A stretch of DNA of 32,000 nucleotides from an archaeon GW2011_AR10 (GTDB taxonomy: Archaea; Iainarchaeota; Iainarchaeia; Iainarchaeales; GW2011-AR10), in assembly GCA_000830275.1 (NCBI GenBank), contig CP010424.1, forward strand, positions 150,001 to 182,000. Reading direction: 5' to 3'. A model generated the notes under the pieces. That model saw nothing but the letters and a program-made list of their open reading frames with translations, ran no database searches and was not told the DNA's origin. Shown one piece after another: positions 12,486 through 29,762 of this stretch (positions are counted from its first letter, which is position 1; each line of letters starts with the position of its first letter). Position numbers and translations under genes: made by a program.

Positions 12486-12710
12486 CAGAAACCTTTAAAA
12501 ATCAAGATAATGTCTAATATATAGGAACAAATTAACACTTACAGGATTCCAAGAGTGTTATTTTTCCACGCACGCTGCAACGCTTTGTTGTAGCGTTCAA
12601 CGGATTTTACCAATTCTATTGGTAGGCATTGCGCCGCTTTTTCACAGTTAGATATGAGCATCCAAGCTTTTTTGGATGTGATGCAGGCAACCGGTTGATG
12701 CAAGAAGTTT

Positions 12711-12768: not shown

Positions 12769-14252
<1,484 letters not shown>

Positions 14253-14395
14253 TCAATCTATTACGAAAAAAATGTTTCGTAATGTTGGAACTTGTTCCTG
14301 CAAGCTTTTGATTGCATTAGCCGGTTTGCCTGTTGCAAAAAAAAAATTTGGCTCTGCAACGGGTTCGTGCTTGCTGGCTGAGGCCTGTTGAAGTC

Positions 14396-14468
14396 GGGCT
14401 CTTAGCTCAGCTGGTAGAGCGCCTCGTTTGCAACGAGGAGGCCACGAGTTCGAATCTCGTAGAGTCCA
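14396..14468 (+). tRNA. tRNA-Ala(UGC) in the 16S-23S spacer
   Basis: Clean cloverleaf: GGGCTCT TA GCTC AGCTGGTA GAGC G CCTCG TTTGCAA CGAGG AGGCC ACGAG TTCGAAT CTCGT AGAGTCC A. The G3:U70 identity pair is present. Confidence 0.95.
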
Positions 14469-14469
14469 T

Positions 14470-14515
14470 AAACGGAAACCTCCGTTTACGAGGTATGCCA
14501 TGCGTTGCATGGCAT
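14470..14515 (+). repeat. Two-hairpin module, copy E, immediately 3' of tRNA-Ala
   Basis: Sequence AAACGG-AAACCT-CCGTTT ACGAGG T ATGCCATGC-GTT-GCATGGCAT. It is near-identical in architecture and partly in sequence to copy D at 19609-19652. Confidence 0.7.
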
Positions 14516-14695
14516 TGGTTCGCTTCGCTCACAAAAGCAGGGAAGTCAGCCGGCACCTTGTATGTGTCCTTCCTTCAGAAGGACAGTAATACGGGGAAAA
14601 AAATTGTCGCTTACAAAATTGTTGTAAGGTCGCCGTTCAAAGATTTTTTTGAACGGTGCAACGCGCATTACATTTTTTTTGTTTTGCGTTGGTTG

Positions 14696-14727
14696 CTGCA
14701 TTGGTAGGTTCATCAGTTTAAGAATTC
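14696..14727 (+). other. 5' strand of the pre-23S processing helix with a canonical BHB motif (partner 17769-17800)
   Basis: The 11-bp helix pairs CTGCATTGGTA with TACCAATGCAG. The central helix pairs GGTT with AACC. The 3-nt bulges are CAT (14711-14713) and TAA (17787-17789). The inner helix pairs CAGTTTAAGAATTC with GAGAACTCTTAAACTG, with one mismatch. Confidence 0.75.
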
Positions 14728-17700
14728 TGCAAGCCATTTAGTGGATAACTAGGCTCAAGGGCTGACGAAGGGCGTGGCAAGCTGCGATAAGCCTTGGCGA
14801 GCTGCATGCAAGCATTGAACCAAGGATTCCTCAATTGTTCCGAAAGGAACGGTAACGCAGGGAATTGAAGCATCTTAGTACCTGCAGGAAAAGAAAGAAA
14901 CCTCGATGCCCTTATTAGGGTCGACCGAAAAGGGCAGAGAACAAACCGAATCCTGCATGGCAACATGCGGGAAATGTGGTGTGCTTCAGGTACTTCCCTT
15001 AAAATCAGCTGAAGTCAACTGGAATGTTGTGCCATAGAGCGTGAAAGCCGCGTAAGCAAAGTTTTTGGGGAAGATTCCTGAACGTAAGAGTATGGCGCGT
15101 TGGATCTCGCGTCAGAAAATGCGAGCCATTAACTCGCAATTCTAAATACCTCTTGAGTCCGATAGAGAACTAGTACTGTGAAGGAAAGTTGAAAAGCACC
15201 CTTAGCGGGGGGTCAAAAGCGCTTGAAACTAAATGGCCACAGGGAGGCACGGCTCGAAAGAATAGACGCTTTTCGAAGTGAAGGTTTCAAAGAACCGGAA
15301 CGAGTTAAGCTGATCAGGGTTGTGCCGTACGTCCTGAAGCACGAGCGAGGGAATTAATGGTTGTGGCAAGGCTAACTGCTTCACGCAGGAAGCCGAAGCG
15401 AAAGCAAGGTTCCGCAGTTTCGATGAGGGAACAGGTACTCAAGTGCCTGAGTCACAGCTTTTAGACCTGAAGCCAGGTGATCTACTCTTGGGCAAGGTGA
15501 AGCCAATCAACCGATTGGTGGAGGCCTGCAACTAGTGTTAGTCCAACTGCTTAGGTGACCTGAGAGTAGGAGTAATATGCCATTCGAACCTGGCAATAGC
15601 AGGCTCCTTCCGAAGTAGCTCTAAGGCTAGCCTGGCTGGAGATAAATTGTGGTGTAGAGATACTGATTAGAAAGTACTGGTTGGAAACTTCCAGCTTTCT
15701 TGTCAAACTCCGAATCTGCAATTATCGTAGAAGGCCAGAGTAGGGGCACCGGCGTAAGGTCAGTGCCCTAAAGGGAAAGAACCCAGACTGAGGTTAAGGC
15801 CCATAAGTGCTGGTTAAGTGTAACGTGAAAAGCGTCGTTATCCTAAAACAGTAGGGAGGTTGGCTTAGAAGCAGCCATCCTTTAAAGAAAGCGTAACAGC
15901 TCACCTACCTAGGATGACGGCCTTGAAAATAATCTGGGCTAAACCAGCTGCCGATACCCCGGAATGCCAGCTGTGCTGGTAGTTTGGTAGGAAGGTGCTC
16001 TAATGGAGCAGAAGCAGGGAAGTGATTTCCTGTGGATCTGTTAGAGATATGGATCCTCGCGATAGTAATGATAAAGAGAGGTGAGAATCCTCTCCGTCGA
16101 AAGGGCTAGGGTTCCTTAGCGCTAATCGTTAGCTAAGGGTTAGTCGATCCTAAAGTGAACCGTAACACGAGTTCACTGAATGGGAAACAGGTTCATATTC
16201 CTGTACCATGCAAATACGTTCGGCAACGATTGCTCGTTTTTCGACGCTTTGGGTTAGGCCAAGCACACTTGTCTGTGTGTTTAACTGGCATAAATCTCTG
16301 GAGAGCCATAATGGCGAGAAAGAGATTAAAGCTAGGAATAGCTGCAAAGTTTGGCTGAGACCTAGAGCCCCTGAAAAGAGAAACGAGATGGATTTTGCAT
16401 GTCCGTACCAAGAACCGAGAAAGGTGCCCCTGGCTGAGAAGGCCAAGACGTCGCAGGGTAACCCCGTCAAGGGAATTCGGCAAATTAGCCCCGTATCTTC
16501 GGTATAAGGGGTGCCTATAGTTGCATAAACTATAGGTTGCAATAACAAGGGGAGTCCGACTGTTTATTAAAAACACAGGTGACCGCAAGCCAGAAATGGT
16601 GTGTATGGTTGCTGACTTCTGCTCACTGCCAGTACGTGAAACTCTCGTTCAAGAGAACTAAGCGCTGGTGAAGAGCGGGCCTAACTCTGAGGCTCTCACG
16701 GTAGCGTAATACCTTGCCGGTTTATTGCCGGCTTGCACCAAGGAAGTAACGAGATTCCCAATGTCCCTGAGGGGGGCCTGATGAACTCACTTCCCGGTGA
16801 ATATGCCGGGGATCTCCAATGGGAAGAGAAGACCCCACGGAGGTTTACCACAGTCTGATGCTGCGGTTTGGTTTTTAATGTGGAGCGTAGATGGGAGTCC
16901 TAGAAGCAATTTCGCTAGGAATTGTGGAGACAACAATGGAACACCATCCTTTGAGGACTAAATCGCTAACTTGAAAGAGGACAACATTTGATTTGGTGGT
17001 TGGGCTGGGGTGGCACGCCCCTGAAAAAGTATCAGGGGCGCCCAAAGGTCTGCTCATCCGAGTCAGAAATTCGGAGTGGAGTGCAAGAGCAAAAGCAGGC
17101 TTGACCATGGTCTACAAAGCAAGGAACGTGGATTCGAAAGAAGGGTCTAGCGAACGTCAGTGTGCCCTTTAATGGGGCCCTGGTCTGACAGTGAACTTAC
17201 CCTGGGGGTAATTGAGTGGTCGCGGGTGAGAGTCCATAAGCCTTTTCTTTTTCAAAAAGAAAAGCCTTGGGAAAAGAAAAAATTTTTTTCAAGGAAAAAT
17301 TAATGAAAAAGATGGCTGGATTTATCGACCCCGCGGTTTGCGACCTCGCCGTCGTCTCAAGGCATCCTGGCTGTGCATAAGCAGCCAAGGGTGGAGGTGT
17401 TAACTCATTAAAGCCTTACGTTAGTTGGGTTGAGAACGGTGCGAGCCAGTTTGGATACTATCTATTGGAGATGTTGAGTGCCTGAAGGGAAGATCCATTG
17501 AGTACGAGAGGAACGATGGGTCGTGGCCACTGCTTTGCCAGTTGTCTGACAAGGCATTGCTGGGTAGGTACGCCATAGCTTATAAGAGCTGAAGGCATCT
17601 AAGCTCGAAGAAGCCCCTGAAAAGAGGCACTCATTCCTGAATCAGTTTGTCCTCCGGGGCAGATTGTGTAGGGACGAGAGTGACGCTAAAAGAGCGGTTT

Positions 17701-17786
17701 GATAGGTGAGAAGTGTAAGCTGGAAGCTTCGGCGACCAGTTAAGCTAACTCATACTAAGAACTCGAGAGAACTCTTAAACTGAACC
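14714..17786 (+). rRNA. 23S rRNA (span delimited by the BHB; mature ends a few nt further in)
   Basis: Contains GAAGGGCGTGGCAAGCTGCGATAAGCC near the 5' end. Also present are GAAGACCCCACGGAGGTTTACC and a PTC region, GGGGGTAATTGAG..ATCGACCCCGCGG..GGGTTGAGAACGG, that aligns with archaeal 23S. No 5S follows. Confidence 0.9.
17238..17323 (+). other. 86-nt AT-rich, ORF-less insertion in the 23S helix-89 loop; candidate BHB mini-intron
   Basis: The central helix pairs GTCC (17232-17235) with GGAT (17318-17321). The bulges are ATA (17236-17238) and TTA (17322-17324). The inner helix pairs AGCC (17239-17242) with GGCT (17314-17317). Removal gives GAGAGTCCAT|ATCGAC, the same length and pattern as the consensus H89 loop GAGAG(C/U)(U/C)CAUAUCGAC. 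Confidence 0.6.
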
Positions 17787-17805
17787 TAATACCAATGCAG
17801 TAACT

Positions 17806-17940
17806 AAACCTTTTAGGAAAAGGTTTGCGAAAATGTGCTTTCGGCTGAAACCAAAGGTTTTACAAGGAGGCTTATCAAAACGCAGCTTCGCAAAAACCTT
17901 TTTTTTGAAAGGTTTATCAAAATGTGCTTTTGGCTAAAAC
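17806..17940 (+). repeat. Tandem array of about three two-hairpin modules (A, M, B) in the 23S 3' trailer
   Basis: A (17806-17852) is AAACCTTTT-AGG-AAAAGGTTT GCGAAAA TGTGCTTTCGGCTGAAACC. B (17894-17940) is AAACCTTT-TTTTTG-AAAGGTTT ATCAAAA TGTGCTTTTGGCTAAAAC. M (17853-17899) is a degenerate copy containing GGCTTATCAAAACGCAGCTTCGCAAAAACC. Confidence 0.7.
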
Positions 17941-17951
17941 TCATTAAAAAA

Positions 17952-19244
17952 TTATTTTTTTTCCTTCGTTTTGCTTTCAAAGCTTTCTCTTAACTCTTTC
18001 CTTGTCTTAAACTGTTCCGGGTGTTTTTTTCTAAGTATGTCCAGCTGCCGTCTTCTTTCCTTTTCATACAAAATGTTTGGCAACTCCCAGTCAGGGTGTC
18101 TTTTTTGAATTCCTCTCACAACTTTCTCATCTGAAAGCCTTCTTAAAAGGCCTATTCTTGTTTTTGCTCCTAAAAGTTTCATTAACTCTTCTTCTGATGG
18201 CCCATACAAAGGCTTTCCGATTACATCACTAATTTCACTTCTTTTTGTTCTTTTCAGCCCCGCCTTGTTGTATGCATTTTCTGCTGCGGCTTCATATAAT
18301 CCGTTAATTGCACTAGGGCCTCTTCTTAACTTTCCTGGCTGATCTTCTATCATTCTTTTAAGTTCTTCCTGAAAAATTTTTTGAATGTCCGTTGAAAAAG
18401 ACGATGACTGCCTTGCCAGTGCTCTGTACTCTTCAATTTCCTGAGGGGTTCTTTTTTGCAAAAAATCCGGTGTTATGTTTTTTTGTGCTGCAATTTTCTC
18501 AGTTAAAACTTTAGCTGCTGTTTCAGCCGATATCAAGTCCTGTTCAATTGCAACAGCAATAGCGCTGTTAAGATTTTTATTGTCGCTGTTAAATTTTAGC
18601 AAATCCGAGACTCGTTTTTCAGGAAAATTTTTTGGAAGAAAACCATGCTTTTTCATTTCTCCCAGCCAAAAAACATATTCTTCCAAGCGAGCGCTCCTTG
18701 TCCTCAACTTTTGCATAATGTCGTGAATTCTTTTAAGAGAGATTTCAAACTTATCGCCCTTAAACGAAGTTTCCCCTTGTTTTTCCATTGATTCCAGAGC
18801 TTTTAACAAAGCTCCAAATAATGGTTCCTTTCTGAGCAAAAAAATGTTGTATTCAGGAGAATAAGTTCCAAATTCTGCTCCGGGAAACTTATAGTGAATA
18901 ATTACTCTTTCCCTCACCCTTTTATGGAAAGGAATTTCAACTGGTTTCACGCGAGAAATTTCTAGTCCCTTATTCAATGCCTCACGGGCTCTTTGCTGCT
19001 GTCGCTTTATTTCTTCCACTTGCTTAAAGTGTGCCTCAACCCTTCTCCTTGCTTCAGCTCCTTCCGTTTTAGTAAGCGCTTTCTGCTTCCTTTCCAACCC
19101 ATAAATTGCCAGCCTGGCACCATCAATAGTTTGAGGCGCTTTCCTTGAACGAGGCCTAAGTGCCATTTCAACTGCGGTATTAATTCTATCTGCCCTAGTT
19201 GGCAGCATTGTTATTATTTTTCTTCTCCCGCTGTTTCTGCGCAT
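17952..19244 (-). CDS. Hypothetical highly basic, charged protein (430 aa), orphan
   Basis: Long uninterrupted ORF, Arg/Lys/Glu-rich throughout and predicted helical. The N-terminus is MRRNSGRRK and the C-terminus is KTKEKK. No catalytic motif is recognised. It is divergent from RNase P RNA. Confidence 0.7.
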   Translation of the reverse strand: MRRNSGRRKIITMLPTRADRINTAVEMALRPRSRKAPQTIDGARLAIYGLERKQKALTKTEGAEARRRVEAHFKQVEEIKRQQQRAREALNKGLEISRVKPVEIPFHKRVRERVIIHYKFPGAEFGTYSPEYNIFLLRKEPLFGALLKALESMEKQGETSFKGDKFEISLKRIHDIMQKLRTRSARLEEYVFWLGEMKKHGFLPKNFPEKRVSDLLKFNSDNKNLNSAIAVAIEQDLISAETAAKVLTEKIAAQKNITPDFLQKRTPQEIEEYRALARQSSSFSTDIQKIFQEELKRMIEDQPGKLRRGPSAINGLYEAAAENAYNKAGLKRTKRSEISDVIGKPLYGPSEEELMKLLGAKTRIGLLRRLSDEKVVRGIQKRHPDWELPNILYEKERRRQLDILRKKHPEQFKTRKELRESFESKTKEKK

Positions 19245-19284
19245 ATAAAAGCAATGATTTTGAACTTTAACTTGCTTTCGGTCA

Positions 19285-19294
19285 GTTTAAATAC
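19285..19294. promoter_or_regulatory. TATA box between the divergent orphan gene and RNase P RNA
   Basis: GTTTAAATAC has a palindromic TTTAAA core. It is centred ~28 nt upstream of the RNase P RNA 5' end and ~45 nt upstream of the ATG at 19244 on the other strand. Confidence 0.45.
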
Positions 19295-19316
19295 CTTTAA
19301 TGACGCAATTATTATT

Positions 19317-19608
19317 GGAGTAGCAGGAGGCTGGCTGACGGTGCTGATTCATTTCGGCGCTGAGGAAAGTCCGCCCACTCAAACCTTTTAAAAAAAAAGG
19401 TTTACGAAAAAACTGCTTTTGGCAGAAAAATCACTCTTGAAAAGGAGTCCCAGGGAACAGAAACGGTACCCATTCATTTGGGTTGAAACGCGCCTTGGGT
19501 TGAACAAGCAGTCAAATGCTTGGGAGTGCAAGTTCAAGTAACGCTAAGGTGAATGCCGGCAGCCCTGCTTGCAGGGGTAACAGAAGGCGGCTTACTCCCT
19601 GCTGCTCC
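19317..19608 (+). ncRNA. rnpB: RNase P RNA (archaeal type, compact)
   Basis: P1 pairs GGAGTAGCAGG with CCTGCTGCTCC. CR-I is GAGGAAAGTCCGCC, which pairs with GGCGGCTTAC of CR-V to form P4. ACAGAAGGCGGCTTA matches CR-IV/V. GGGAACAGAAAC and CTAAGGTGAA are S-domain-like elements. Confidence 0.8.
19381..19431 (+). repeat. Two-hairpin module, copy C, inside RNase P RNA just after CR-I
   Basis: Sequence AAACCTTTT-AAAAA-AAAAGGTTT ACGAAAAAA CTGC-TTTTG-GCAG AAAAAT. It is flanked on both sides by CACTC (19376-19380 and 19432-19436). Confidence 0.65.
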
Positions 19609-19652: not shown

Positions 19653-19739
19653 TAGCTCGTCTTCGGGCTCGTAAAACAGAAGCTAATTTTTATCTTGCTG
19701 AAATCGGTTTTAAATGCTTTTTCTTGGAAGGTTTTAGTA

Positions 19740-21542
19740 ATGCCTACGTCCGATAATGTAAGGGAAAAGTTCTTGAAGTTCTTCAAGGAAAAAAAGCACG
19801 CAATTATTCCGAGTGCCTCGCTTATTCCTGAGAACGATCCCACTGTTTTGTTCACAACCGCTGGAATGCACCCTCTAGTGCCTTTTCTGCTTGGCGAACA
19901 GCATCCAAGCGGAAAGCGCTTGGCAAATTTCCAGAAATGCGTTAGAACAGTTGACATTGATGAGGTGGGAGACAGATGGCACTTAACCTTCTTCGAAATG
20001 CTGGGCAACTGGAGTCTGGGGGATTACTTCAAGAAGGAAGCAATTGAGTGGAGCCACGAGTTTTTAACCAAAAAAAAGTGGCTTGGGTTTGACTCTGAAA
20101 GAATCCATGTTTCCTGCTTTGAAGGCGACAAGGACGCGCCAAAAGACGCTGAAGCAGCAAAGGTCTGGCAATCACTTGGAATTCCATCTGAAAGAATTCA
20201 CTTTTACTCCAAGAAAGAGAACTGGTGGGGCCCGGCAGGCCAAACAGGTCCCTGCGGTCCAGATACTGAAATGTTTTATGACACAAAAAAAATTTCCCAC
20301 AAAGGAGAGTGCGGGCCGTGGTGCAGTTGCGGAAGGTTTGTGGAGGTGTGGAACGATGTTTTCATGCAGTACAACAAGACTGCTGAAGGAAAGTTTATTC
20401 CATTGAAACAGAAAAACGTTGACACAGGAATGGGTTTGGAAAGAGTGGCAGCGGTAATTGATGGCCTTGATTCAGTTTTTGAAACAGATTTGATGGTTGG
20501 AGCGTTCAATAAAGTAAAAGAGCTTGGAAACCAAAAGCTTGTTGAAAAGAACATGAATTCTGTCAGGATAATAACCGATCACCTGCGCGCTGCGGCTTTT
20601 ATTCTTGGGGATGAAGTGGGCATTGTTCCAAGCAACGTTGACCAGGGCTATGTTGTAAGGCGCCTGATTAGGCGCTCAATCAGGCATGCAAGACTGGTTG
20701 GAATTGAAGGCCATTTTACAAGTGAAGTGGCAGGGGAAGTTGTCAAGCGCTTTCAGGGAATTTACCCCGAATTAAGGAAAAGCAGGGAAAGGATTTTCTC
20801 GGAGCTTGACAGGGAGGAAGCCAAGTTCCTTAATACGATTCATAAGGGCTTGAGTCTTGCTCAAAAAGAAATTTCTGCACTGGAAAAAGAGGCCAAAACT
20901 GTTTTCCCAACAAAAGCTGCATTTGACTTATACCAAAGCTTTGGTTTCCCTATTGAAATGACTGAAGAAATTGTGCGCGAGAAAGGGTTTAAGTTAAACA
21001 AGGAAGATTTCTTCAAGAAATTGGCGGAACACCAAGAGCTCTCCAGAAAAGCAACAGAGAAAAAATTCAAGGGAGGCCTTGCAGACACGCAGAGTAAAAC
21101 AATTAGAATGCACACTGCAACCCATTTACTTCATGCGGCCTTAAGGAAAGTTCTAGGGGAACACGTTGCACAGAAAGGCTCAAACATCACCACTGAAAGG
21201 CTTAGGTTTGATTTTTCTCATCCTGAAAAAGTTCCTGAAGAAAAACTAAGGGAAGTAGAGGCTTTGGTTAATGAGAAAGTAAGGGAAGGGTTAAGCGTTA
21301 AAATGGAGGTAATGTCTCCGCAGCAGGCAAAAAAGGACGGAGCAATAGGGTTGTTTGCGTCAAAGTATGGTGAGAAAGTCAAGGTTTACACTGTGTTTGA
21401 CCAGAAAACAGGAAAGTTTTTTTCAAAAGAAATTTGCGGCGGCCCGCACGTGAACAACACAAAAGAAGTTGGAAAATTCAGGATAGTTAAAGAGGAAGGC
21501 ATTTCAGCAGGAGTGCGCAGAATAAAAGCAGTGGTAGAATGA
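19740..21542 (+). CDS. alaS: Alanyl-tRNA synthetase, bacterial-type, short form (600 aa) ending after the editing domain
   Basis: N-terminal motifs are FTTAGMHP, QKCVR and HLTFFEMLGNWSLGDY. Editing-domain motifs are HTATHLLH and CGGPHV. The protein ends at GVRRIKAVVE. The ATG at 19740 (MPTSDNVREKF) is preferred over the track start at 19695. Confidence 0.9.
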   Translation: MPTSDNVREKFLKFFKEKKHAIIPSASLIPENDPTVLFTTAGMHPLVPFLLGEQHPSGKRLANFQKCVRTVDIDEVGDRWHLTFFEMLGNWSLGDYFKKEAIEWSHEFLTKKKWLGFDSERIHVSCFEGDKDAPKDAEAAKVWQSLGIPSERIHFYSKKENWWGPAGQTGPCGPDTEMFYDTKKISHKGECGPWCSCGRFVEVWNDVFMQYNKTAEGKFIPLKQKNVDTGMGLERVAAVIDGLDSVFETDLMVGAFNKVKELGNQKLVEKNMNSVRIITDHLRAAAFILGDEVGIVPSNVDQGYVVRRLIRRSIRHARLVGIEGHFTSEVAGEVVKRFQGIYPELRKSRERIFSELDREEAKFLNTIHKGLSLAQKEISALEKEAKTVFPTKAAFDLYQSFGFPIEMTEEIVREKGFKLNKEDFFKKLAEHQELSRKATEKKFKGGLADTQSKTIRMHTATHLLHAALRKVLGEHVAQKGSNITTERLRFDFSHPEKVPEEKLREVEALVNEKVREGLSVKMEVMSPQQAKKDGAIGLFASKYGEKVKVYTVFDQKTGKFFSKEICGGPHVNNTKEVGKFRIVKEEGISAGVRRIKAVVE

Positions 21543-29529: not shown

Positions 29530-29672
29530 ACTAGAATTTTTAGAAAGTAGAAATGCCATAAAGGATTAATACGGGCCAGGAGGAGTCCAAAATCAGAAAA
29601 ACCCAAGGTTTTTCCGACACCTTTTCCTCCATAAATTTTTTACTGAATTTATTGTAATGTTGCGTGTCAAAG

Positions 29673-29762
29673 CGGACCCGGAGGGATTCGAACCCTCGAC
29701 CTGCTGCTTTCCTCCGTGGAAGCATTAGAAGGCAGCTGCCCTATCCACTAGGCTACGGGTCC
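29673..29762 (-). tRNA. tRNA-Arg(UCU) with a canonical 37/38 intron
   Basis: The reverse complement reads GGACCCG TA GCCT AGTGGATA GGGC A GCTGC CTTCTA[intron]A GCAGC AGGTC GAGGG TTCGAAT CCCTC CGGGTCC G. The anticodon TCT lies at 29729-29727. Confidence 0.85.
29709..29725 (-). other. 17-nt canonical intron of tRNA-Arg
   Basis: The intron is ATGCTTCCACGGAGGAA. The central 4-bp helix pairs CTTC (nt 32-35) with GAGG, flanked by the 3-nt bulges T36-A37-a and a-a-A38. Confidence 0.75.

Follow-up and report, generated by a model that had tools for sequence, protein, structure and literature searches.

What becomes of 86 additional nucleotides that interrupt a 23S rRNA gene at the loop that caps helix 89 (H89), and can they remain in the ribosome? 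This question is raised by a window of 32,000 nucleotides, the whole stretch of DNA analysed here, from GW2011_AR10 (Diapherotrites / Ca. Iainarchaeum), an archaeon found repeatedly in several groundwater data sets and represented by a recorded genome contig of 1.24 Mb. The protein uL16 binds to H89, which forms a wall of the corridor through which the A-site tRNA is accommodated, and to our knowledge there is no expansion segment at the H89 tip in any known ribosome. The host gene extends from 14718 to 17778 on the plus strand, to which all coordinates refer unless stated otherwise, and it matches the archaeal LSU model of Rfam (RF02540) over its full length with 2571 bits. In a cmscan alignment of window positions 17050-17480 with model positions 2385-2729, the terminal loop of H89 holds 88 nt, between GAGUCCA on the 5' side and UCGACCCCGCGG on the 3' side, where the consensus holds two. 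The excess of 86 nt corresponds to 17238-17323, an AT-rich segment between the equivalents of E. coli U2477 and A2478. The helix itself is preserved, as its strands occupy 17215-17231 and 17325-17342 in the Rfam consensus structure, the stem CGCGGG/CCCGCG is intact, and G17230:C17326 and A17231:U17325 still close the loop. From the alignment, the assemblies and the comparison with relatives, we consider it likely that 17238-17323 is an archaeal bulge-helix-bulge (BHB) intron without an ORF of its own, for which release as a circle is predicted.

The junctions of the insert form a strict hBHBh' motif, whose outer helix h consists of H89's own closing pairs (G17230 and A17231 on the 5' strand, U17325 and C17326 on the 3' strand). 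The central helix H of 4 bp combines the exon bases GUCC (17232-17235), which belong to the mature H89 loop, with the intron bases GGAU (17318-17321) through the pairs G17232.U17321, U17233:A17320, C17234:G17319 and C17235:G17318. The two 3-nt bulges, AUA at 17236-17238 and UUA at 17322-17324, each sit 3' of the central helix on their strand. The inner helix h' is formed by AGCC (17239-17242) and GGCU (17314-17317) via A17239:U17317, G17240:C17316, C17241:G17315 and C17242:G17314, and it resumes past a small internal loop, where UCUUUUUCA (17246-17254) is paired with 17304-17312. Further inside, a central hairpin (CCUUGGGAAAA ... UUUUUUUCAAGG) occupies 17265-17294. The insert folds as a stable rod (z = -4.2), and the BHB fold is co-optimal at -37.0 kcal/mol when the native H89 pairs are enforced. 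There is also an iso-energetic alternative register, with a 5-bp H that extends through A17236:U17317 and a bulge UAA, and the outer helix comprises only two Watson-Crick pairs before the 3x3 internal loop of H89 follows. The splice sites were predicted by the rule that the cut falls after the second bulge nucleotide, as at the 37/38 site of tRNA-Arg and in the circular 23S junctions of relatives, which places them between 17237 and 17238 and between 17323 and 17324. The predicted exon junction connects GAGAGUCCAU directly to AUCGACCCC, and the resulting loop, GUCCAUAUCGAC, has exactly the consensus length.

The window contains three further BHB substrates, which share the 4-bp/3-nt geometry and the polarity of the insert. 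The processing stem of the 16S rRNA, a comparator for the same endonuclease, has the H strands GAAG (12704-12707) and CUUU (14305-14308) with the bulges UUU (12708-12710) and UGA (14309-14311), so that the two sides of this motif cover 12704-12710 and 14305-14311. In the processing stem of the 23S rRNA they cover 14706-14712 (H AGGU 14706-14709, bulge UCA 14710-14712) and 17784-17790 (H ACCU 17784-17787, bulge AAU 17788-17790). The third substrate, on the minus strand, is the gene of tRNA-Arg(UCU) at 29672-29762, with a canonical 37/38 BHB intron of 17 nt at 29709-29725 (H CUUC/GAGG, bulges UAA and AAA). Seven 23S contigs of relatives were recognized with Rfam as circularly permuted and RNA-derived, and all three that were examined have exactly 7 nt (4+2+1) between the complementary h' strands. 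Such a junction is the mark of cutting after the second bulge nucleotide and subsequent ligation at the 23S processing stem. According to Pfam, neither EndA nor RtcB is encoded in the 32-kb window; the tRNA-Arg intron and the BHBs of the two processing stems imply that EndA and an RtcB-type ligase are present in the genome. An earlier note, made from the letters of this DNA, had placed an 86-nt insert at 17238-17323 in the loop of H89, with the stem retained, and had drawn its junctions as GTCC/GGAT with the bulges ATA and TTA and the inner helix AGCC/GGCT. It had further claimed that the polarity agrees with that of the rRNA stems and the tRNA-Arg intron, and that a cut between bulge nucleotides 2 and 3 yields a loop of consensus length. 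The alignment and the folds bear out all of this, the junction fold base for base.

A strict BHB in any of three sequence-equivalent registers was counted in composition-preserving shuffles of the insert, and was present in 78 of 200,000 when h' had at least 3 bp and in 37 of 200,000 when it had at least 4 bp, corresponding to a chance of 1.9-3.9 x 10^-4 for the motif at these boundaries. When position and length are left free, the bare BHB pattern gives about 280 matches per strand in the window and about 370, both strands, in shuffled windows. A free pattern scan was rejected as stand-alone evidence, as it produces hundreds of matches that do not rise above the shuffles. The bare pattern is unspecific; the informative signal is the coincidence of a BHB with boundaries that were set independently by alignment.

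Such an independent definition of the insert is provided by the syntenic MAG L009, which has no insert and reads GAGAGTCCA-C-ATCGAC in the pairwise alignment. A metagenome scan yielded at least 118 related 23S loci, and among the approximately 118 related contigs listed, only AR10 and a second lineage, L125, carry the insert. It is absent at the exact site from L009 and from at least 17 DNA contigs of relatives longer than 10 kb, that is, from at least 18 DNA relatives including the parent clade L147 (also called the sister clade), and the exact gap is seen in about 110 other relatives among the matches listed. The insert is also the sole indel of at least 15 nt in the mature rRNA relative to the related contigs listed. 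The earlier note had asked for presence/absence polymorphism at this very site and had named a lineage-wide expansion segment as the contrary outcome; it is the polymorphism that was found. Five DPANN loci that had been found through AlaRS and were scanned (L005, L006, L008, L030 and L051) hold no rRNA gene, and L009 had one. The AlaRS of the window is of the bacterial type, and its matches in a GTDB search are mostly bacterial.

In L125, the exons are 87% identical to those of AR10, and a homologous insert of 109 nt is found at the same site. Both BHB helices and the closing stem of the central hairpin are kept, and one base differs in each bulge (AUA to ACA and UUA to UAA). The interiors differ by indels of 3 nt and 26 nt, the latter a partial duplication in L125 that sits in the loop of the central hairpin, and the BHB of L125 is co-optimal at -46.2 with the native H89 enforced. 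Its predicted product, GUCCACAUCGAC, is the commonest insert-less allele among the relatives listed. The AR10 product is likewise a loop allele of insert-less relatives, and the loop bases GUCCAY/AUCGAC are the same in carriers and non-carriers. With only two intron sequences, the BHB helices offer no compensatory changes as a test. The contig L124, the closest relative that lacks the insert and about 96.5% identical to L125, was considered as an intron-less close relative and was rejected, as Rfam revealed a circularly permuted, RNA-derived 23S contig, which cannot serve as an intron-less gene; the missing insert in L124 is compatible both with an intron-less gene and with a spliced RNA. The sequence past the 23S 3' end in L124 could not be aligned to the downstream flank of L125, but this does not amount to a comparison of genomic spacers, as L124 is permuted and its 3' end runs into the 5' part of the 23S rRNA.

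If 17238-17323 is an intron, the loop bases GUCC would pair in the pre-rRNA with GGAU of the intron 3' end, giving the 4-bp helix and the two 3-nt bulges on opposite strands, with the closing pairs of H89 stacking on one side of the BHB and the long intron stem on the other. EndA, the tRNA-splicing endonuclease, would then cut two nucleotides into each bulge, and an RtcB-type ligase would join the exons to the normal 7-nt loop (GAGAGUCCAU-AUCGAC) and circularize the 86-nt intron. We infer both the cleavage and ligation at the H89 site and the enzymes responsible for them.

Other explanations have to be weighed against such splicing. Two short contigs (L091 and L090) stop within or right after the insert, as might be expected if it arose by mis-assembly or lay in an rRNA copy that does not function. 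However, the insert is the same base for base in five independent GW2011_AR10 assemblies from different samples, and the proteins of the window were found again on a contig of 1,241,428 bp, the longest on record, which excludes an assembly artefact. Also, 16S and 23S rRNA both reach full-length scores against the archaeal Rfam models, their processing stems are intact and L125 is another organism with a homologous insert, so that artefact and dead gene together have a negligible probability. More serious is the view that mature 23S rRNA retains the 86 nt as an extra arm at the H89 tip, the BHB-like fold being simply the base of this arm. The interior of the insert is as conserved as rRNA (73 of 83 positions identical between AR10 and L125, or 88%, versus 87% for the exons), the rod fold is stable, and the rRNAs of DPANN and CPR are known for unusual insertions (for CPR see PMC11270868). 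Yet a retained segment is very improbable in our opinion, as it is not lineage-wide, as an expansion segment does not need a loop-restoring 4-bp/3-nt/3-nt geometry with a chance of 2-4 x 10^-4, and as the loop bases are unchanged relative to insert-less relatives. In addition, the H89 tip packs against uL16 and the path of the A-site tRNA, where no expansion is known.

It could also be envisaged that EndA or another RNase removes the insert and that the exons are not re-joined, leaving a 23S rRNA in two pieces that the ribosome holds together. A BHB predicts cleavage in any case, and bacteria are well known to have rRNAs that are fragmented by the removal of intervening sequences. Against this stands that the clade does ligate after BHB cleavage at the 23S stem, as seen in the seven circular contigs and the exact 7-nt junction in three of them, and that RtcB performs the ligation for the archaeal BHB introns known in rRNA (PMC4496867 and established knowledge). 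Harm would also probably result from a nick in the 7-nt loop of H89, so close to the peptidyl-transferase centre, and we therefore regard excision without re-joining as improbable.

For the interior of a spliced spacer that has no function, the conservation between AR10 and L125 is unexpected, and it would suit a retained rRNA segment as well. While we favor the spliced BHB intron, it is doubtful, though worth considering, that this intron goes beyond the role of a passive spacer, being either recently mobile between Diapherotrites lineages or functional in its own right. In the former case, an ORF-less BHB intron could have spread by reverse splicing or by recombination via the invariant H89 flanks. 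In the latter case, the excised circle of 86-109 nt, or the intron within the precursor, may possibly have a role of its own, and one conceivable role is to keep H89 open as a checkpoint in the assembly of the peptidyl-transferase centre.

Searches for genetic elements in or related to the intron were negative. The 86 nt harbor no homing-endonuclease ORF, be it LAGLIDADG or other, and only read-through ORFs of 28-63 aa that overlap the rRNA exons run across it, in agreement with the designation as ORF-less in the earlier note; two of these ORFs were looked up in protein databases and are not recorded as genes. No Rfam intron family (group I/II) reached the gathering threshold in the window, and a permissive Rfam scan of 17225-17335 gave a best match of 18.9 bits, far under threshold, and no intron family. 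Inspection of the insert by eye did not reveal a C/D-box or other sRNA family. BLAST found no further copies in the window and all collected loci, so that within these sequences the intron is neither a dispersed repeat nor a MITE. Two conserved intron cores were also scanned against viral contigs and gave chance matches only; the two matches that were inspected are located in unrelated sequences other than rRNA. A full-text literature search for an H89 intron brought up no paper, and a literature search found none on A2503C/U2504C in DPANN.

BHB introns in archaeal rRNA are familiar from the 23S rRNA of Desulfurococcus mobilis and from the 16S and 23S rRNAs of Pyrobaculum and Thermoproteus. 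The AR10 insert resembles them in that it interrupts a highly conserved rRNA site with 4-bp helix and 3-nt bulges, lacks a self-splicing core, is sporadic among relatives and belongs to the short ORF-less forms. Short ORF-less hairpin BHB introns are known from the 16S rRNA of Thermoproteales, and ORF-less short rRNA introns comprise hairpin introns of less than 50 nt and "remnant" introns (PMC4496867). With 86-109 nt, the AR10/L125 intron exceeds the hairpin class and has no endonuclease remnant, its interior is unusually conserved between two hosts, and AR10 is a mesophilic member of DPANN, unlike the crenarchaeal thermophiles. With introns at position 37/38 of pre-tRNAs, exemplified by the tRNA-Arg(UCU) in the window, it shares an identical hBHBh' geometry, polarity and cut position, but the host is an rRNA, H89 takes the place of the anticodon stem as outer helix, and the intron has five times the length. 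The BHBs of the 16S and 23S processing stems, which feed the circular pre-rRNA pathway, have the same motif and presumably the same enzymes; they release a whole rRNA from the primary transcript, whereas the insert BHB would remove an internal segment whose exons need joining. Bacterial intervening sequences are removed by RNase III without ligation, and the 23S rRNA remains in pieces. These sequences and the rRNA insertions of CPR (PMC11270868) are similar to the insert as extra sequence at a hairpin tip that is removed post-transcriptionally, as predicted for the insert, but they are either group I/II introns or targets of RNase III that are not followed by ligation, whereas the AR10 BHB fits the archaeal splicing endonuclease. 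BHB introns have been described in LSU genes of DPANN (PMC6125680), and the group I introns in the 23S rRNA of DPANN share gene, superphylum and the peptidyl-transferase region with the insert (PMC6125680). The insert differs from these group I introns in having no Rfam intron match and no LAGLIDADG ORF and in being too short, with 86 nt, for a ribozyme core, and its site at LSU 2477/2478 is not among the archaeal LSU group I sites 1923, 1931, 2500 and 2593 (Nawrocki, Jones and Eddy 2018, PMC6125680).

The spliced intron that we favor would extend the range of BHB-type rRNA introns to the Diapherotrites, a mesophilic lineage of DPANN, and would add to their insertion sites the H89 loop, which adjoins the peptidyl-transferase centre as well as the A-site accommodation corridor. 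In practical terms, the 86-109 nt would have to be left out when rRNA of this group is annotated or aligned for phylogenies and when primers or probes are designed, and contigs derived from DNA and from RNA would differ at the H89 site. That an ORF-less intron is conserved like rRNA in two hosts poses the puzzle of how such an element may persist or spread without a homing endonuclease.

When window positions 17050-17480 are aligned with the archaeal LSU model, the terminal loop of helix 89 (H89) of the 23S rRNA has 88 bases opposite 2 consensus bases, an excess of 86 nt that falls at 17238-17323. H89 keeps its stem intact, including both closing pairs (G17230:C17326 and A17231:U17325). An E. 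coli numbering derived from the sequence, with the known modified positions Psi2457, Cm2498, m2A2503 and Psi2504 as anchors, places the insert between U2477 and A2478. Two short assemblies from the AR10 population (L090, L091) end inside the insert (17284) or 40 nt past it (17363), which could be due to low-complexity A/T runs or co-assembled variants.

[quoted passage not shown] The central helix consists of G17232.U17321, U17233:A17320, C17234:G17319 and C17235:G17318, and the inner helix extends from A17239:U17317 to C17242:G17314. The bulges, AUA (17236-17238) on the 5' strand and UUA (17322-17324) on the 3' strand, each follow the central helix on its 3' side. An earlier note, made by reading the sequence, had proposed the same helices and bulges, and its junction bases match this pair list at 17232-17242 and 17314-17324 exactly. 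It had also anticipated that cuts between bulge nucleotides 2 and 3 give a consensus-length loop; indeed, cuts after nucleotide 2 of both bulges take out 17238-17323 and leave GAGAGUCCAU-AUCGAC, a loop of that length. The unconstrained minimum free energy fold mis-pairs H89. Once the native H89 pairs are imposed, the BHB fold reaches the optimum of -37.0 kcal/mol, as does a register shifted by one pair.

Three further BHB substrates in the window can be compared: the 16S stem (12704-12710 with 14305-14311, forward strand; GAAG/CUUU, bulges UUU and UGA), the 23S stem (14706-14712 with 17784-17790, forward strand; AGGU/ACCU, bulges UCA and AAU) and the 17-nt intron at position 37/38 of tRNA-Arg(UCU) (29709-29725, reverse strand; CUUC/GAGG, bulges UAA and AAA). 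Each combines a central helix of 4 bp with 3-nt bulges and has the polarity given in the earlier note, every bulge lying on the 3' side of the helix on its own strand. If position and length are left free, the bare BHB pattern carries no information: each strand of the window has about 280 matches, and shuffled windows have about 370 over both strands. What counts as evidence is thus that the motif falls on boundaries set independently by homology: when the 86 nt were shuffled 200,000 times and a strict BHB was scored in any one of the three sequence-equivalent registers, it appeared 78 times with an inner helix of at least 3 bp and 37 times with at least 4 bp.

The insert resides in an archaeal rRNA operon (12769-19606) in the order 16S rRNA (12769-14252), tRNA-Ala (14396-14468), 23S rRNA (14718-17778), a 430-aa ORF and RNase P RNA (19319-19606), with no linked 5S rRNA gene in this interval; the RNA genes, all on the forward strand, were located with Rfam, as was the intron-containing tRNA-Arg(UCU) gene (29672-29762, reverse strand). 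In the spacer immediately downstream of the 23S, two direct-repeat copies of about 32 nt each, aaggttt..aaaatgtgcttt.ggct.aaac (17820-17851 and 17910-17941, forward strand), stand 90 nt apart, each preceded by an AT-rich hairpin; the repeat may have a role as a terminator or promoter. The lysine/arginine-rich 430-aa ORF directly downstream of the 23S (17952-19244, reverse strand) had no match in a Pfam search, and the cluster members found are AR10-like only. A GTDB search identified a bacterial-type alanyl-tRNA synthetase (AlaRS; 19695-21542, forward strand) with matches in a few DPANN archaea (55-63% identity) and otherwise best in Spirochaetota, Bacillota, Lentisphaerota and CPR bacteria (52-58% identity), which suggests an old transfer from a bacterium to DPANN. 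The AlaRS gene adjoins RNase P RNA in L006 and L009 as well. Exact look-ups of proteins in the window (locus tags QT03_C0001G0203 and G0209) assign it to archaeon GW2011_AR10 (Diapherotrites / Ca. Iainarchaeum sp.), and the proteins recur in several groundwater data sets on contigs of up to 1,241,428 bp.

The 23S of AR10 also carries A2503C and U2504C (17349-17350; ACCUCGCCGUCG in place of ACCUCGAUGUCG) as well as A2448G, C2452U and A2453U (17208, 17212-17213), all at peptidyl-transferase centre positions conserved in the Rfam archaeal consensus. Together, C2452U and U2504C would exchange the two bases of the C2452/U2504 contact. The CC at 2503-2504 is common to L009 and at least 118 metagenome contigs (L092-L209), comprising at least two divergent 23S types, and is therefore a clade signature rather than an error; a literature search found no paper on A2503C/U2504C in DPANN.

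The syntenic MAG contig L009 (16S end, tRNA, 23S, RNase P RNA, AlaRS) lacks the insert precisely (GAGAGTCCA-C-ATCGAC). A metagenome scan anchored on the CC at E. coli 2503-2504 (consensus AU) listed at least 118 contigs, about 100 of which have insert-less H89 spacing; the others are cut short or deviate at the upstream marker, yet are insert-less in sequence. The only insert carrier among the matches listed is L125, with 109 nt at the same site. At least 17 of the insert-less contigs listed exceed 10 kb (up to 844 kb) and hence represent DNA. In a BLAST chain comparison of AR10 with these relatives, the H89 insert is the only indel of at least 15 nt in mature 16S and 23S.

L125 and AR10 exons are 87% identical over about 650-670 nt. 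The two inserts are homologous, with 73 of 83 aligned bases identical; that of L125 has lost 3 nt and gained 26 nt, the gained stretch being in part a tandem duplication. L125 keeps both BHB helices, with one substitution in each bulge (AUA to ACA, UUA to UAA), and here too the BHB is co-optimal (-46.2) once the native H89 pairs are imposed. Splicing would yield GUCCACAUCGAC, the clade's commonest insert-less allele among the metagenome matches listed. The 3' part of the intron reads AAAAAGAU in one insert and GUUGAAAA in the other, and both versions pair with the U-rich 5' part in different registers, so that a rod-like inner stem is kept. In the position of the 430-aa ORF, L125 has an unrelated ORF of 246 aa.

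A neighbour-joining tree of 69 sequences groups AR10, L125 and L124 (bootstrap 63/100), next to the insert-less L122, L143 and L147. L124 shares 96.5% identity with L125 and lacks exactly the insert, but a reading of it as an intron-less allele, the result of precise loss, had to be rejected. According to Rfam, L124, L122 and L143 are circularly permuted 23S sequences in which 13-18 nt link the 3' end to the 5' end, L143 being a complete circle of 2994 nt; L132, L136, L144 and L180 bring the permuted contigs of the 'metagenome' collection to seven. In all three examined, exactly 7 nt separate the complementary inner-helix strands (4 from the central helix, plus 2 and 1 bulge bases), in agreement with the junction ...CUUAAACUGA-ACCUAA|A-UCAGUUUAAG predicted for AR10 from 23S-stem cuts at 14711|14712 and 17789|17790. 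The permutation and this junction imply RNA as the source of these contigs, be it circular pre-23S or mature 23S in circular form, and the missing insert is therefore uninformative about their genes. They show that circular (pre-)23S is abundant in this DPANN clade, and they are RNA-level evidence that cutting after bulge nucleotide 2 and subsequent ligation, the reaction proposed for the H89 insert, operates there.

Based on the sequence evidence, the RNA junctions of the clade and established knowledge on the H89 tip, we consider it likely that the insert is a spliced intron: EndA would cut at 17237|17238 and 17323|17324, and RtcB would join the exons, with the 86-mer being circularized. Excision with the exons left unligated is improbable. 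Slightly less probable still is retention as an extra arm; the H89 tip touches uL16 and borders the path of A-site tRNA accommodation, and we know of no ribosome with an expansion at this tip. The earlier note had regarded a lineage-wide expansion segment as decisive against an intron, but the insert is sporadic among relatives, which argues against such a segment. An artefact or a dead gene is very unlikely; the 86 nt are identical in five independent assemblies and thus no mis-assembly. The insert has no match to an Rfam intron or sRNA family and contains no endonuclease ORF, as its description as ORF-less had implied. The window and 1.7 Mb of related loci yielded no further copy, and viral contigs scanned with its conserved cores gave chance hits only.

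Crenarchaeota have long been known to carry BHB introns in their rRNA genes, some of them short hairpins without an ORF (PMC4496867), and in DPANN LSU genes such introns have been reported beside group I introns (PMC6125680). The site 2477/2478 is absent from the archaeal LSU group I sites tabulated there (1923, 1931, 2500 and 2593), and a full-text search found no paper on an H89 intron. We therefore rate the AR10 insert as a putative BHB rRNA intron of a known kind, with a new insertion site and host lineage. The main feature left unexplained is that the intron interior evolves as slowly as rRNA between AR10 and L125, which suggests either that an ORF-less intron has recently spread laterally or that the intron RNA has a function.
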